The notes under the pieces were generated by a model that was not told where the DNA came from, made no database searches, and saw only the letters and a program-made list of their open reading frames with translations. Of a stretch of 5,318 nucleotides of DNA, positions 109 through 5,238 are shown piece by piece. This DNA is from a virus (taxonomy: Duplodnaviria; Heunggongvirae; Uroviricota; Caudoviricetes). The DNA lies in IMG/VR virus record IMGVR_UViG_2706794492_000015. One strand, given 5' to 3'. How positions within the stretch are numbered: position 1 is the first letter of the stretch; each line of letters starts with the position of its first letter. A program made the translations under genes and the position numbers.

Positions 109-203
109 AGAAATGAAAAAAGGCCACGCAGTTGCGCAGCCTGATAAACCCTGGTTAAAATCCACACGATAACAACACAACAATATCAGTATCTCATGCT
201 ATT

Positions 204-228
204 GCCCGAACCCATTCGGGCATTTTTT
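204..228 (+). terminator. Rho-independent terminator, plus strand
   Basis: Stem GCCCGAA (204..210) / TTCGGGC (215..221) with loop CCCA, followed by A then TTTTTT (223..228). On the minus strand it lacks a U-tract. Confidence 0.5.
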
Positions 229-233
229 ACCCA

Positions 234-262
234 TAAAAAAATGCCCCTCCGGAGAGGGGCAT
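234..262 (-). terminator. Rho-independent terminator, minus strand, ending the methyltransferase transcription unit
   Basis: Perfect 9-bp stem ATGCCCCTC / GAGGGGCAT (241..262) with a 4-nt loop; on the minus strand the hairpin is followed by seven T (234..240). Confidence 0.6.
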
Positions 263-510
263 GTTTGCATGCACATTCTTTTTCTTGCATGGTGCCGGGT
301 GCCTCCCGGTGAATTCAGTATCAGCACCTGAACCCGCACAGAAAGGATAGAGTAGAAACACCTGCGCTGATATGCCCCTCCGCTCAGGGGGATTCACCAT
401 GCCAGTTTCTTTTAACAAACTCCCCGCAAACCAGACAACTGTCAACCGTCTGAATTGTGAGACATTTAAAATTTTCGGGGCGTACCTGATACCCGGTTAA
501 TTCTGCAATA

Positions 511-1569
511 TCATCCGTTCTGACTGACTAAATCCTGTACTTCCCTGACCGTCTGCTCAAAACGTTCAGTCTCCAGCTCAACGCCAGTTGCACGACGCCC
601 CAGCGCCATCGCGGCTTTGACTGTCGAACCCGACCCCATGAAGAAATCTGCAACCAGGTCACCCGGACGACTGCTCGCACTGATTATCTGCTGCAGCATT
701 TCTGCCGGTTTTTCGCACGGATGTTTCCCGGGATAGTACTGCACCGGTTTATGCGTCCACACATCCGTGTACGGCACCTGCGCCGTCACGCCAAAATACC
801 GCCGCAGATGCTTATATTCACTCTGTAGTTCCGCATACTGCCGGTTCAGTGAAGTATACGTCTCCAGCAGCTGGTGGTGGGGCTTCTCCAGTTCACCCCG
901 CTGATGCTTCTCTTCTGCCACCCGGGCAAACAGCGCCTGTAATTTCAGATAATCGCTTTCGTTCGGTAGCTGCCACTGACTGGCACTGAACCAGTGCGAC
1001 ACCATGTTTTTCTTTCCTGTGGCATCCACTATCTGTTTTGCCGTTATCCCCAGGGCAGCACGCGCATCACGAAAGTAAGAAATCAGCGGAGCCATCACAT
1101 GCTGTTTCAGTGCCCTGCCCTTCGCCTCATACCCGGCATCTTTCGGACGATACGGCCCCTGATAATGTTCCGCGAACAGAATGCGCTCTGTGGCGGGGAA
1201 ATACGCCCTCAGGCTTTCCTTGTTGCACCCGTTCCAGCGTCCGGACGGCTTCGCCCAGATAATATGGTTCAGCACACTGAAGCGTTCACGCATCATGATT
1301 TCAATGTCAGATGCCAGGCGATGGCCACAGAACAGGTAAAGACTTCCGGCAGGTTTCAGCACCCGCCAGAACTGCGCCAGACACTGGTCCAGCCACTTCA
1401 GGTAATCATCGTCGCCCTTCCACTGGTTATCCCAGCCCTCAGGCTTCACTTTAAAGTACGGCGGGTCCGTGACTATCAGGTCAACAGAATTTTCGGGTAA
1501 CGACCGGATAAATTCCAGGCAGTCAGCGTTGATCAACTCACAACTGGATATTTTTACAGTGTTAAACAT
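511..1569 (-). CDS. Orphan DNA methyltransferase, beta-class (N6-adenine or N4-cytosine; PF01555-like), 352 aa
   Basis: ATG start at 1569. Motif IV DLIVTDPPY at aa 30-38 and motif I DFFMGSGST at aa 305-313, in the IV-then-I order that defines beta-class amino-methyltransferases. The C-terminal segment HPCEKPAEMLQQIISASSRPGDLVADFFMGSGST parallels E. coli YhdJ as I remember it. No restriction endonuclease candidate is adjacent. Confidence 0.9.
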   Translation of the reverse strand: MFNTVKISSCELINADCLEFIRSLPENSVDLIVTDPPYFKVKPEGWDNQWKGDDDYLKWLDQCLAQFWRVLKPAGSLYLFCGHRLASDIEIMMRERFSVLNHIIWAKPSGRWNGCNKESLRAYFPATERILFAEHYQGPYRPKDAGYEAKGRALKQHVMAPLISYFRDARAALGITAKQIVDATGKKNMVSHWFSASQWQLPNESDYLKLQALFARVAEEKHQRGELEKPHHQLLETYTSLNRQYAELQSEYKHLRRYFGVTAQVPYTDVWTHKPVQYYPGKHPCEKPAEMLQQIISASSRPGDLVADFFMGSGSTVKAAMALGRRATGVELETERFEQTVREVQDLVSQNG

Positions 1570-1601
1570 GGATCATTAAGCCTGTCTCTGATAGGCTCAT
1601 T

Positions 1602-1620
1602 CTGCTTTTGCGCAAAGCAG
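1602..1620. promoter_or_regulatory. Palindromic operator-like site upstream of the methyltransferase gene
   Basis: CTGCTTT (1602..1608) and AAAGCAG (1614..1620) are perfect inverted 7-mers around a 5-nt centre TGCGC. The site lies about 35-65 nt upstream of the methyltransferase ATG, between the preceding terminator and the start codon. Confidence 0.3.
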
Positions 1621-1709
1621 TGGGCCTGAGGTTTGCTTGTGATCCAGACGCATGAGCAGATGGCTGGTGAGTGCCCCTAACACCCACCAGCCGCCCATTT
1701 ACCACAAAT

Positions 1710-1733
1710 AAAAAAGCCTTCAGGACTGAAGGC
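1710..1733 (-). terminator. Rho-independent terminator, minus strand, after the 65-aa ORF
   Basis: Minus-strand reading GCCTTCA-GTCC-TGAAGGC followed by TTTTTTATTT; 7-bp stem at 1716..1722 / 1727..1733 and T-run at 1710..1715. The stop codon of the upstream ORF lies inside the stem. Confidence 0.6.
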
Positions 1734-1917
1734 GTCTGTAACAACCGAACTGATAGTCTGCCAGACCCGCCATAACAAGCTGGGTCAGTATTAACTGGCA
1801 GCGTTCGCGTGAAAGGTAAGTATTCTGCGCAATCTCCCCGACTGTCGCCGGTTCGGTGACGCTTAATTCATTAAACACTGCTCTGGCGGTTTCTGTCATA
1901 TCCTGCTGTTTCAGCAT
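1720..1917 (-). CDS. Small hypothetical protein (65 aa), possibly a helix-turn-helix DNA-binding protein; first gene downstream of tR'
   Basis: ATG at 1917 preceded by AAGGGA with a 7-nt spacer. The 77-aa version in the ORF track begins at a TTG (1953) without a ribosome-binding site. The segment TVGEIAQNTYLSRERCQLILTQLVMAGL looks HTH-like by eye. Ends in the terminator at 1710..1733. Confidence 0.55.
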   Translation of the reverse strand: MLKQQDMTETARAVFNELSVTEPATVGEIAQNTYLSRERCQLILTQLVMAGLADYQFGCYRRLQS

Positions 1918-2040
1918 GTCTTTTTCCCTTTTTCGGTTAACGTGACACACCAATAACTCTTGTCAAAAAAGCCAGCAAGCTGAAAGACCGGTATTCACCG
2001 CCACCAGCGCGTTTACTGTACTGACGCGATTTCAGTCATA

Positions 2041-2061
2041 AAAAACCCGCCAGGCGGCGGG
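2041..2061 (-). terminator. tR'-like rho-independent terminator about 45-65 nt downstream of the pR'-like start
   Basis: Minus-strand reading CCCGCC-GCCT-GGCGGG followed by TTTTT; 6-bp GC stem at 2046..2051 / 2056..2061, T-run at 2041..2045. Confidence 0.6.
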
Positions 2062-2098
2062 GTGTAAAAAATCTTCTAACGTCAGGCATAAAACGCCC

Positions 2099-2138
2099 AT
2101 CGTTAGGGCAAATTTACCACAGATTCGGGAAAAATCAA
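2099..2138 (-). promoter_or_regulatory. Lambda pR'-like late promoter with sigma70-dependent pause element (Q-utilisation region)
   Basis: Minus-strand reading TTGATT (2138..2133), 16-nt spacer, TGG-TAAATT (extended -10; hexamer 2116..2111), then TGCCCT-AACGATGGG (AACGAT at 2104..2099). This parallels lambda pR' TAAATTTGACTCAACGATGGG as I remember it. It lies directly after the Q stop codon. Confidence 0.6.
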
Positions 2139-2143
2139 CAAAG

Positions 2144-2965
2144 CTATCTGGTCACCTTTTTCAGTTGTTGTTCTGCCCATGCTTCTTCAATATCAAACTG
2201 CACCACCAGCGTATCGTAAAAACGTTTAACTGTTTTTTTCCATGTATCAAGAGATATGGCATCGGTTACATTACATATGGCATTAAATGCCTCCGTTGAT
2301 GGTAGTCTTTCACAGCCACGACCACCACAACGCTGGCAGTCTCTGATAACAGGCATACCACGTTTTACCGACTCTTCACGATGAATGGCGACACCACGCC
2401 CACGGCAATCCTTACAGGCGGTGGAAACCTCACCCTTTCCGCCACACTCCGGACAGGCAACTTTTACCACCTCCCTGACTTTTTTCCATTCCTCCCAGTA
2501 AGACGGATACACGCCTTTTGTGCACTTTGCCCACACTGGCGGCTTACCATCCGGATACTGGATCTTGTTTGTAAAAACCTCGCTTTCAATAAATTTTTTT
2601 CCGTGACAGCAGGGGCACTGTTTTTTGCTCGCCGCGCTACGGGCATAATCTTCAAACGCATACGAAGCCATAATACGCATCACTGCCGGTTTTATTTCTG
2701 CCGGGAGTTTTCTTAACGCCGCCACGCGATCACACCGACTGAGTGCATATTCTGTCAGCAATTCTGTTGCCCGCTCTCTGTCATTCATACTAATGCCCAT
2801 TTTCCCAAGGAACGCAGAAAACCCCATCTCAGCCCGATTCTGTGTCATGCCCTGCGCGGCCATCACATCAGTGATACTCAGCGCATCTTTTGACGTTGAG
2901 GCCGATGCATCGGTCAGGCCAGGGGATTTTGGGGAGTAGTATTTCGGTAAATCTTCCAGTTTCAT
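2144..2965 (-). CDS. Q: Late antitermination protein Q, lambda-Q family, 273 aa with an expanded Cys-rich domain
   Basis: N-terminus MKLEDLPKYYSPKSPGLTD...ITDVMAAQGM and C-terminus TWKKTVKRFYDTLVVQ...KKVTR parallel lambda Q (MRLESVAKFHSPKSP...TDVMAAMGM...TWSRTVKPLYDALVVQ...NAVTR, from memory). Four CxxCxGxx-type motifs at C117, C171, C184 and C210. ATG at 2965 overlaps the rusA stop as ATGA. Position immediately upstream of the pR'-like promoter. Confidence 0.85.
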   Translation of the reverse strand: MKLEDLPKYYSPKSPGLTDASASTSKDALSITDVMAAQGMTQNRAEMGFSAFLGKMGISMNDRERATELLTEYALSRCDRVAALRKLPAEIKPAVMRIMASYAFEDYARSAASKKQCPCCHGKKFIESEVFTNKIQYPDGKPPVWAKCTKGVYPSYWEEWKKVREVVKVACPECGGKGEVSTACKDCRGRGVAIHREESVKRGMPVIRDCQRCGGRGCERLPSTEAFNAICNVTDAISLDTWKKTVKRFYDTLVVQFDIEEAWAEQQLKKVTR

Positions 2966-3348: not shown

Positions 3349-3639
3349 TTACCCAAGCACGCCAGTTGCAAAGGCGTGATCAAGAAAACGAAAAATTAAA
3401 TCAACCTGAGAACCATGCTTTTCTTCGAACGCCAGCGGATCCGCATGAAGCTCGTTGTGATGCTCCCGACACAGCGGTAGCGTGAAAATATCGTGAGATT
3501 TTGTCCCCATTCCGCCCTGACCATGACCAATCAGGTGATGGGGATCGTCGGCTGGCTTACCACAACACGCACACGGCTGTGTCTTTACCCAGCGTGTGTA
3601 TTTCTCATTTACCCAGCGGCGACGTTTAGGTCGTTTCAT
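3349..3639 (-). CDS. Small Cys/His-rich protein with an HNH-like (beta-beta-alpha-metal) motif, 96 aa; putative phage nuclease or zinc-binding protein
   Basis: Preferred start is the ATG at 3639, which overlaps the upstream stop as ATGA (3639..3636). The ORF-track start at 3684 is a GTG inside the upstream gene. Motifs CACCG, DDPHH and LCREHHNELH are spaced like an HNH zinc-finger nuclease. Confidence 0.6.
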   Translation of the reverse strand: MKRPKRRRWVNEKYTRWVKTQPCACCGKPADDPHHLIGHGQGGMGTKSHDIFTLPLCREHHNELHADPLAFEEKHGSQVDLIFRFLDHAFATGVLG

Positions 3640-4187
3640 GAACGATTCAGGAGACTCCGGATCAAATGATTGCAGGCCGCCCACCAGGATAATTCGGCCA
3701 GCGATAACTCCCTCTCCTGCGTACCGCTTATTGCGTGACGGATGACATCAATCATCCAGGCAACCAGATTCTGCTGAGCAAGTTGATCGAGTGATTCTGA
3801 TGTCTGGTCGCGCAGCTGGTTGTCGCAGTGCCAGCACAACACCATCGCGCCGGTACCATAACGGTGAATGACTGTTTCGCTGTGATGATAATCGCCGTGT
3901 GGCCACTGGCAGGATTTCACGTGACGTAATAACCAGTCAGACAGTGCACCTGCACCACCTGCTGCACGAATAACCCGCTCATCGCTGAAAAATGGCAGTA
4001 ATGTTTTATCCTCTGCCAGCGGCTGGCGAACGGCAGGAACGACTCCGGACGGCAGACCGCGCATGTTTTTCGGTTCCGGCTCCACCAATATTCTGCCGTT
4101 ATGGAATACTGACATTGATTCACGGCCTGGCTTAACGATAACCAGACCGAGTTCCGGTACCAGAACAGGTCGAAGTAATACCCGCAC
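3636..4187 (-). CDS. Hypothetical nin-region protein, 183 aa, with Cys/His cluster (CQWPHGDYHH...CWHCDN)
   Basis: GTG start at 4187 preceded by GGAGG, with the upstream TAA stop between the ribosome-binding site and the start. First ATG is at 4115 (alternative start giving 159 aa). Same strand and tight packing with neighbours. No family recognised with certainty. Confidence 0.6.
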   Translation of the reverse strand: MRVLLRPVLVPELGLVIVKPGRESMSVFHNGRILVEPEPKNMRGLPSGVVPAVRQPLAEDKTLLPFFSDERVIRAAGGAGALSDWLLRHVKSCQWPHGDYHHSETVIHRYGTGAMVLCWHCDNQLRDQTSESLDQLAQQNLVAWMIDVIRHAISGTQERELSLAELSWWAACNHLIRSLLNRS

Positions 4188-4978: not shown

Positions 4979-5134
4979 TTACTCCTCAGGTTCGTAAGCT
5001 GTGAAGACAGCGACCTCCGTCTGGCCGGTTCGGATTCGTACCTCGCAGAGGTCTTTCCTCGTTACCAGTGCCGTCACTATGACGGTTAAACAGATGACGA
5101 TCAGGGCGATTAGCATCGCCTTTTGCTGCTTCAT
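4979..5134 (-). CDS. hokD: Hok/Gef-family type I toxin (small membrane-damaging peptide), 51 aa
   Basis: Translation MKQQKAMLIALIVICLTVIVTALVTRKDLCEVRIRTGQTEVAVFTAYEPEE matches my memory of E. coli HokD/RelF and is a typical Hok protein (hydrophobic N-terminal helix, TRKDLCE...R.G..EVAA/VF). ATG at 5134 preceded by AAGGAG with a 9-nt spacer. The 70-aa ORF-track version adds an in-frame N-terminal extension from an ATG at 5191. Confidence 0.85.
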   Translation of the reverse strand: MKQQKAMLIALIVICLTVIVTALVTRKDLCEVRIRTGQTEVAVFTAYEPEE

Positions 5135-5238
5135 AGCCTGCTTCTCCTTGCCTTTCGGCACGTAAGAGGCTAACCTACGTGTGTAGAGCATAGATATGGC
5201 CTCAGATTAATGTTAAGCGTCTTGCCGGACGCGTAATG

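Follow-up and report, generated by a model that had tools for sequence, protein, structure and literature searches.

The first non-specific adenine DNA methyltransferase to be characterised, M.EcoGII, comes from a prophage of Escherichia coli O104:H4 (Murray et al. 2018, NAR 46:840). The enzyme is unexpressed in the growing lysogen and deleterious if expressed constitutively (Murray et al. 2018; 2025 review), and its activation was suggested to accompany the launch of prophage lytic growth (Murray et al. 2018). In O104:H4 and O111 lysogens under growth, no methylation attributable to M.EcoGI, M.EcoGII, or their homologs could be detected, and homologs of 92-93% similarity are entered as "nonspecific" in the table of the O111 study. 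M.EcoGII is now a widely used enzyme, and about 40% of complete E. coli genomes carry a member of its family; the means by which a prophage silences its toxic activity has so far been left at "probably switched on at induction," and the account of M.EcoGII by Murray et al. (2018) does not describe an upstream leader, terminators, or a small open reading frame (ORF). Here we analyse a 5,318-nt stretch of DNA from a Caudoviricetes virus (IMG/VR record IMGVR_UViG_2706794492_000015; hereafter, the window), which is the late-regulatory region of a non-Stx (Shiga toxin) lambdoid prophage of E. coli O157:H7 and encodes a methyltransferase of this type. The new result is that a palindrome between a 65-amino-acid (65-aa) ORF and the methyltransferase gene marks a widespread, covarying RNA leader that occurs only with M.EcoGII-type genes and is apparently undescribed. 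An earlier note on this DNA had listed the antiterminator gene Q, the late promoter pR', the terminators, the 65-aa ORF, the palindrome, and the methyltransferase; each is found where that note put it, on the minus strand, as are all the genes that matter here. Coordinates below are those of the window.

A conserved RNA leader before the methyltransferase gene

The leader is about 128 nt long (1570-1697, minus strand) and fills the interval between the hairpin at the end of the small ORF and the methyltransferase AUG at 1569. It came to light when the region was aligned from E. coli, Klebsiella, Salmonella, and Pantoea, where it is the best-conserved stretch: leaders are 82-91% identical, as against 72-75% for the methyltransferase coding sequence and 45-50% for the third positions of its codons. 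Single-base insertions and deletions among the relatives rule out a reading frame hidden in the leader, and the window sequence folds with a z-score of -4.5. A covariance model built from 41 sequences finds the window leader with 135.6 bits (E=2.4e-35) and, in 96 sources comprising 509 kb searched on both strands, yields 93 matches with E<=1e-3 (1e-46 to 3e-4), at most one per locus, each in sense orientation and immediately 5' of the methyltransferase gene; loci L033, L043, and L051 give no match. In a divergent Serratia-like set, in which methyltransferase identity to the Serratia enzyme is just 58-76%, a leader match is present at 65 of the 80 loci. A pattern scan based on the motifs alone retrieves 120 viral contigs, in 117 of which a methyltransferase gene lies within 400 nt, the end of the locus being reached first in the other three. 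DNA homologous to leader plus methyltransferase is present in 2195 of 5426 complete E. coli genomes, at up to eight copies per genome. None of the 4227 families of Rfam 15 matches window positions 1570-1720 or the leaders of seven divergent loci at E<=1, and no description of an RNA element upstream of M.EcoGII-type genes was found in the searchable literature; a large viral RNA catalogue holds four unnamed candidates upstream of "DNA N-6-adenine-methyltransferase" genes, with which a comparison was not possible.

The leader has five helices, all on the minus strand. P1 (UGGGC/GCCCA; 1697-1693 with 1625-1621) encloses P2, a 12-bp hairpin (1692-1681 with 1673-1662), and P3, an irregular helix (1658-1655 with 1637-1634, plus 1652-1651 with 1641-1640) that has conserved C.A and A.C mismatches; P4 (1620-1614 with 1608-1602) and P5 (AGCCU/AGGCU; 1597-1593 with 1583-1579) follow. 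Across 90 distinct sequences, aligned to the model, 93.3% of the cells in P1-P4 are standard pairs, compared with 78.4% after shuffling and 29-42% when the partners are slid; double-sided changes occur in 28 of the 29 pairs, and the covariation score of 0.377 (0.121 in shuffles) is reached by none of 500 shuffles. The changes themselves are instructive: P1 becomes UGAGC/GCUCA in L018 and UGGGG/CCCCA in L187; P2 stems differ wholly between lineages (GGCUGGUGGGUG/CACCC-CCAGCC, GCUGCAGCAUG/CAUGCUGCAGC, GAUUGUAAUGUG/CACAUUACAACC); the closing pair of P3 varies among C-G, A-U, and U-A, with CCCGU/ACGGG in L038; P4 appears as GCUUU/AAAGC, GCUGAUG/CAUCAGC, GCUCU/AGAGC, or GCGAUG/CAUCGC; and P5, compared by eye, as AGCC/GGCU, AGCG/CGCU, AGUCU/AGACU, or AGUU/AACU. 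Two further pairings were considered and dropped. A long-range helix between GGUCA in distal P3 and UGAUC 5' of the AUG, proposed by single-sequence minimum-free-energy folding, has covariation equal to that of shuffles, and an alternative pairing of GCUCA (P3 5' strand) with UGAGC (P5 5' strand) shows, by eye, only uncompensated disruptions in A3.

P4 is the palindrome that the earlier note singled out, the inverted repeat CTGCTTT-n5-AAAGCAG that forms a 19-nt hairpin at 1602-1620. Since a perfect 7-nt inverted repeat with a loop of 3-8 nt is expected 1.8 times per shuffled window, it acquires meaning only through its conservation and covariation in relatives. There, P4 segments have Watson-Crick arms of at least 5 in 47 of 58 distinct versions (5.2 in shuffles), and 25 of the 58 are perfect DNA palindromes (3.5 in shuffles). 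The P4 apex (window 1602-1620; loci L011-L222) is almost always a self-complementary tetra- or hexanucleotide, reading GCGC, GTCGAC, GTGCAC, CTGCAG, TTGCAA, or CGATCG, a property that an RNA loop does not need; it could reflect (i) a site for a dimeric protein, (ii) a kissing-loop contact, or (iii) neutral quasi-palindrome correction.

The leader and the palindrome persist in ten loci that have no small ORF (L014-L017, L019, L020, L022, L023, L026, and L037). In 62 of the 90 distinct leaders, a terminator-like hairpin with a T run lies within 55 nt upstream, and most of the others have a GC hairpin in this place; the terminator hairpins usually stop 5-11 nt before the leader. On the other side, the methyltransferase start codon of the Enterobacteriaceae type has no Shine-Dalgarno sequence; in the L185 lineage, AAGGG occurs within P5 just before the AUG.

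The methyltransferase and its late-transcription setting

The methyltransferase gene (511-1569, minus strand) encodes a 352-aa protein that matches PF01555 over profile positions 1-219 of 221 (E=5.6e-44, 151.1 bits against a cutoff of 26.7). TDPPY at residues 34-38 precedes FMGSGST at residues 310-316, the order of the beta class; PADLOC assigns the protein to MTase_II (E=5e-164), and its relatives in the PDB are M.RsrI, CcrM, and 8URK. These results bear out the call of a beta-class enzyme made in the earlier note, which did not recognise it as essentially the characterised, non-specific M.EcoGII. Against the M.EcoGII sequence printed in the supplement of the SUPREM paper, which was machine-read and possibly contains errors, 327 of 349 residues (94%) are identical with two gaps, and M.EcoGII and M.EcoGI of O104:H4 strain C227-11 share with the window protein the DPPY motif, central target-recognition region, FxGxG motif, length of about 350 aa, and residence in a lambdoid prophage. 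By its sequence, the window protein is thus an M.EcoGI/M.EcoGII ortholog, a predicted N6-adenine methyltransferase that the earlier note described correctly and that is already known as, in essence, M.EcoGII. It is also an orphan, as that note had it: in an O157:H7 record of identical sequence, it is surrounded by Q, the small ORF, small RNAs, and an esterase gene, with no flanking nuclease gene, and the sole HNH gene of the surrounding ~23.5-kb locus adjoins the terminase gene. The two-subunit rRNA methyltransferase that Gong et al. (2023) reported from an Stx phage was considered as a possible identity for the pair of small protein and methyltransferase and rejected, being an MT-A70 enzyme with a DPPW motif that is encoded elsewhere in the phage.

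Upstream, the locus is built like the lambda late switch. Q (2144-2965, minus strand) is a 273-aa late antiterminator of the lambda-Q family by its match to PF03589 (E=7.6e-50, 167 bits), its assignment to phrog_127 ("anti-termination protein Q-like"), and its annotation as "antitermination protein" in O157:H7; it also contains a DnaJ-type CxxCxGxG zinc finger (PF00684, E=2.6e-6, below cutoff). The protein, longer than lambda Q, has two PF03589 stretches besides the CxxCxGxG segment, and the same architecture is seen in Pantoea locus L008. Just downstream of Q is a pR'-like promoter (2099-2138, minus strand), with the -35 hexamer TTGATT at 2138-2133, a 16-nt spacer, the -10 hexamer TAAATT at 2116-2111, and AACGAT at 2104-2099. 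The window reads TTGATT-16 nt-TAAATT-TGCCCT-AACGATGGG and lambda pR' TTGACT-17 nt-TAAATT-TGACTC-AACGATGGG (full regions, TAAATTTGCCCTAACGATGGGCG and TAAATTTGACTCAACGATGGGTT), so that window and lambda agree fully in the -10 TAAATT and in the AACGAT-GGG block. We take AACGAT, as in lambda, to be the sigma70 pause element.

The promoter is followed by a tR'-like intrinsic terminator (2040-2061, minus strand; hairpin 2061-2046), recorded in a terminator scan as CCCGCC-GCCT-GGCGGG and then TTTTTT. For many Stx phages whose Q is of another type, homology begins or ends at about 2061, which makes this terminator a module boundary. A second intrinsic terminator (1706-1733, minus strand; hairpin 1733-1716; GCCTTCAG-TCC-CTGAAGGC plus TTTTTTATTT) overlaps the stop codon of the 65-aa ORF and ends about 9 nt before P1. 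Terminators also lie downstream of the methyltransferase gene, at 262-241 and 142-121. On the minus strand from 2045 to 1570, a simple consensus scan detected nothing resembling a promoter. Given the two terminators and the lack of a detected promoter, only Q-modified RNA polymerase would be expected to reach the methyltransferase gene, and the conserved unit appears, from its anatomy, to be terminator plus leader plus methyltransferase placed where only such a polymerase transcribes. In locus L014, the order is Q, AACGATGGG, terminator, leader, and methyltransferase, with no small ORF.

That the methyltransferase sits in the slot after Q and pR'/tR' in which Stx phages carry their toxin genes is upheld by phage 1720a-02, a true Stx2 phage that has the same small ORF and methyltransferase between Q and stx2A, is 95.9% identical in nucleotide sequence to window positions 223-2061, and was named by Murray et al. 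(2018) as a carrier of a very similar gene. In Klebsiella, Salmonella, and Pantoea, the module lies between Q and the holin gene behind three Q families (PF06323, PF06530, and PF03589). The word "moron" used in the earlier note is apt as far as it designates this pR' cargo slot; in its strict sense it implies a promoter of its own, and none was found between tR' and the methyltransferase gene, which would make the latter a late-operon cargo, unlike a classical, autonomously expressed moron.

The 65-aa ORF (1720-1917, minus strand, from the ATG; 77 aa from an upstream TTG) belongs to phrog_331 (E=1.7e-37) and has 340 homologs, the best of those listed spanning many Enterobacterales genera at identities of at least 80%. 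Identity of 86-94% at codon positions 1 and 2, compared with 39-59% at position 3, marks it as a translated gene under purifying selection. Its weak profile matches, to TrmB (18.9 bits) and DprA_WH (16.6 bits), both below cutoff, and to Lrs14, are all of winged-helix type. An AlphaFold (AF2) model with three helices and a predicted local distance difference test (pLDDT) score of 65 has as its top Foldseek matches in the PDB only winged-helix proteins (MarR, ArsR, GntR, and Z-alpha), at E>=0.15; the protein probably has a winged-helix fold and would stand alone as one. The PDB sequence search returned nothing meaningful for it, PADLOC nothing, and the profile search no HTH_3/Xre match. The helix-turn-helix (HTH)-like label in the earlier note holds insofar as the gene is real and its product winged-helix-like, and fails insofar as an Xre-type HTH is meant. 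Of 45 species-level genome loci with the methyltransferase, 18 lack the ORF, and none of the 80 loci of the Serratia-like set has a detectable homolog of it. Some lineages that lack it have, at the same upstream position, unrelated-looking ORFs of 66-98 aa with weak winged-helix matches, and a small winged-helix gene may thus be a recurrent accessory of the module that is not required.

Two observations concern the neighbourhood of this ORF. A block, CTTG-TG...AC-AGAGTTAT--GT-TGTCA, at about 1925-1975 on the minus strand of the window is common to E. coli, Klebsiella, Salmonella, and Pantoea and sits 15-50 nt before the small-ORF ATG, its E. coli version containing TTGACA at 1967-1962; the AGAGTTAT-containing block may be a regulatory element or a weak promoter for the small ORF. 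Lambda itself has an annotated 64-aa "orf-64" immediately behind pR', where the window has its 65-aa ORF (L295 822-1016; lambda 44621-44815); it was rejected as a relative, there being no evident similarity between the translations.

Proposed silencing of the methyltransferase and competing readings

We posit that the window encodes a Q-dependent, late-expressed methyltransferase of the M.EcoGII type that is silenced by stacked controls, among them the structured leader, and for which the small ORF is dispensable; we put the probability of this reading at roughly 70%. The enzyme would methylate the replicating phage genome broadly before packaging, and progeny DNA so modified would resist many host restriction systems. 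As an enzyme of this kind is toxic, two levels of control would keep it off in the lysogen. The gene would be transcribed only by Q-modified polymerase arriving from pR' through tR' and the second terminator, as its anatomy suggests, and the five-helix leader, together with the missing Shine-Dalgarno sequence, would gate translation or mRNA fate; such a post-transcriptional gate is the most likely role of the leader. In this reading, the 65-aa winged-helix ORF is a real gene that the module can do without, an accessory placed between tR' and the unit of terminator, leader, and methyltransferase. The part of this proposal that the earlier note anticipated, late Q-dependent expression in the service of self-protection, fits what has been published on the 94%-identical M.EcoGII, is already implicit in that literature, and is read for the window from its anatomy. 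What our analysis offers beyond "probably switched on at induction" is an architecture in which polymerase reads through two terminators in dependence on Q and the transcript then has a conserved structured leader devoid of a Shine-Dalgarno sequence.

Several points weigh against this reading. Non-specific adenine methylation is predicted for the window enzyme by homology, from its 94% identity to M.EcoGII, and the 22 substitutions and gaps are concentrated in residues ~164-255, the putative target-recognition region. The promoter scan was a crude consensus search that an internal promoter could escape, and there is a perfect TTGACA at 1967-1962, albeit with a poor -10 and no conservation in relatives. 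The covariation statistics depend on an alignment fitted to the model, and they cover P1-P4, P5 having been judged by eye with its 3' strand out of register in the alignment. When 49 divergent leaders were aligned by MAFFT blind to structure and analysed with RNAalifold, only P1 was recovered, since the variable hairpins lose their register; for this reason P2 and P4 were given alignment-free checks, in which the 42 nt after the P1 5' strand folded as a hairpin in nearly all of 73 distinct sequences (median z -4.06) and P4 gave the counts of Watson-Crick arms quoted above. Wobble pairs give no guide to the transcribed strand: paired columns contain 74 G.U and 105 A.C cells, so that G.U does not exceed A.C. 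The sense-strand reading relies instead on the fixed orientation of the leader, its fixed distance to the start codon, and the fact that the window offers an antisense RNA neither a suitable terminator nor a suitable promoter. Finally, the mode of regulation is itself inferred, and no conserved helix that sequesters the start site emerged, the long-range candidate lacking covariation.

The earlier note had likened the small protein and the palindrome, as a speculation, to the controller (C) proteins of restriction-modification systems, a model in which the 65-aa HTH-like protein binds the palindrome as its operator and controls methyltransferase transcription. C proteins and their C-boxes do resemble the locus in having a small protein of DNA-binding type beside a methyltransferase and an inverted repeat nearby; the protein is probably a winged-helix DNA binder, the excess of perfect P4 palindromes is what a dimeric DNA-binding protein would prefer, and the unrelated-looking small ORFs of other lineages recur at the same place. 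However, the palindrome and leader are kept without the small ORF, at the ten loci named above and at 65 of the 80 Serratia-like loci; P4 is part of an element whose P1-P3 covary in the manner of RNA; there is neither a nuclease gene nor an Xre/HTH_3 match, the fold being winged-helix-like rather than Xre-type; a terminator separates the small gene from the methyltransferase; and, where a C-box is found upstream of the C gene, the palindrome follows the small gene and comes 33 nt before the methyltransferase ATG. We regard the model as very improbable, and the comparison does not survive: the ORF is optional, and the palindrome is a helix of a leader tied to the methyltransferase. The analysis thereby removes a tempting annotation of the small ORF and palindrome that would be wrong. 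Another idea, that the element encodes an antisense RNA by which the methyltransferase is shut off in lysogens as sok silences hok, or else is a site acting at the DNA level, draws on the wobble counts, which do not favour the sense strand, on the frequent perfect palindromy of P4, on upstream terminators that are bidirectional in L168 and L195 (an A run before, a T run after), and on the hok/sok module that provides antisense control elsewhere in the same prophage. It appears improbable to us, given that the upstream hairpin of the window has no plus-strand T run at which an antisense transcript would terminate, that the first part of the methyltransferase gene has no plus-strand promoter-like site directed at the leader, and that the element, as a leader should, keeps a constant orientation and a constant distance from the start codon.

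Two further alternatives concern when and why the gene is used. A lysogenic-conversion gene with its own promoter, active in the lysogen and altering host expression epigenetically, would suit both the pR' cargo site, which houses stx and other conversion genes, and the spread of the family, in many copies, through E. coli genomes; M.EcoGIII, the model for such a role, reportedly alters host gene expression. The lack of detectable methylation by these enzymes in the growing lysogens cited at the outset, the harm done by unregulated expression, the failure to detect a promoter, and the two terminators ahead of the gene make this highly improbable. A riboswitch that senses a metabolite such as S-adenosylmethionine (SAM) or S-adenosylhomocysteine (SAH), the cofactor and the product of the methyltransferase, and lets the mRNA be translated only while there is enough methyl donor to methylate the whole genome would account for the multi-helix junction with its near-invariant unpaired ACAAGC-AACC-AGG and the GAGCCUAnCA before P5, for the fixed position in the 5' untranslated region of a single family of SAM-dependent enzymes, and for conservation far above neutral divergence. 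Rfam 15 contains no SAM, SAH, or other riboswitch model that matches, though, neither an alternative terminator/antiterminator nor a conserved helix sequestering a Shine-Dalgarno sequence was found, and association with a single gene family is commoner in protein-binding autoregulatory leaders than in metabolite riboswitches; this explanation seems unlikely. Under the preferred reading of stacked controls, we would go one step further only tentatively: it is possible, if rather doubtful, that the leader is an undescribed effector-responsive RNA, either a riboswitch for the methyl cycle or an operator for the methyltransferase or a phage late protein, that acts as a lock until late lytic growth, with the P4 apex serving as a protein-dimer or kissing-loop contact. 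Such a switch, if real, would be a new class of RNA regulator in the best-studied bacterium and a handle on hyper-methylase expression.

Neighbouring genes and relation to known systems

The window is 100% identical to a lambdoid prophage of many E. coli O157:H7 chromosomes except for one 211-bp deletion. In an annotated identical record, the gene order is hokD, a DUF968 gene, rusA, the antitermination protein, the 65-aa hypothetical protein, and the DNA methyltransferase, followed by an unannotated gap, an esterase of the SASA family (SASA/NanS-type), holin, lysozyme, an Rz-type lysis protein, and terminase. The DUF968 gene of the window (3349-4187, minus strand) is broken into overlapping ORFs at 3349-3684 and 3636-4187; the otherwise identical O157:H7 records have 211 extra bases in this gene and encode an intact 349-aa protein, so the window carries a deletion or pseudogene allele. 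Upstream of the nin-like region, at 4979-5303 on the minus strand, there is a complete hok/sok type I toxin-antitoxin module, recognised by a Hok/Gef match (PF01848, E=2.9e-23), a sok RNA match (RF01794, 111.7 bits), and hokD in the matching genome. Downstream of the methyltransferase gene, an STnc100-family small RNA (231-431, minus strand; Rfam RF02076, 150 bits, E=1.8e-34) contains the 262-241 terminator, and AgvB, an anti-GcvB sponge RNA (167-228, plus strand; RF02702, 96.5 bits, E=1.6e-18), is convergent with the late transcript. The position of STnc100 and AgvB between the methyltransferase and esterase genes fits the convergent small-RNA layout described for the pR' moron site by Tree et al. 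(2014).

Set against described systems, the locus resembles the pR' cargo site of Stx phages, in which cargo lies between tR' and the lysis genes with convergent small RNAs after it, and the Q/pR'/tR' switch of lambda, with which it shares a PF03589 Q, an identical -10 TAAATT and AACGAT-GGG, and a terminator shortly after the promoter. It differs from lambda in the distance of that terminator from the promoter, only ~40-60 nt in the window, where the lambda tR' transcript is about 194 nt long, and in the second terminator that stands in front of the cargo gene. As a covarying element at a fixed position 5' of one gene family, the leader is akin to riboswitches and to the T4 gene 32 and regA operators; it differs from these known 5' leaders in matching nothing in Rfam and in that no expression platform has been demonstrated for it.

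A functional parallel is the com-mom operon of phage Mu, in which a toxic late DNA-modification gene is controlled at both transcription and translation, an analogy to M.EcoGII that the 2025 review draws explicitly. There are differences: Mom is not one of this family of SAM-dependent methyltransferases, a com-like ORF is missing from the window, no activator protein is identified for its system, and the leader comprises five helices where Mu has a single regulated stem-loop. One lineage does encode, in the interval between leader and methyltransferase, a zinc-ribbon ORF of 36-48 aa with a CxxC...CxxC pattern (L190 1340-1465; L207 1323-1469; L196 1349-1465; L177 1358-1468) that resembles Com, the translational activator of Mu mom (PF10122, E=3.7e-4, 20.3 bits, below the 22.9 cutoff); about 60 nt upstream of the leader, this lineage (L190, L192, L196, L207, and L177) has TTGAGTACCTGAGACC...GAGAGG-AGC in place of the usual terminator, which may be a separate structured element. 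The Com-like ORF strengthens the mom analogy, while it is no evidence for the window itself. What the Mu operon and the M.EcoGII-type module have in common is an anti-restriction activity that modifies adenine, is silent in the lysogenic state, and is toxic on expression, together with a structured region of mRNA in front of the modification gene.

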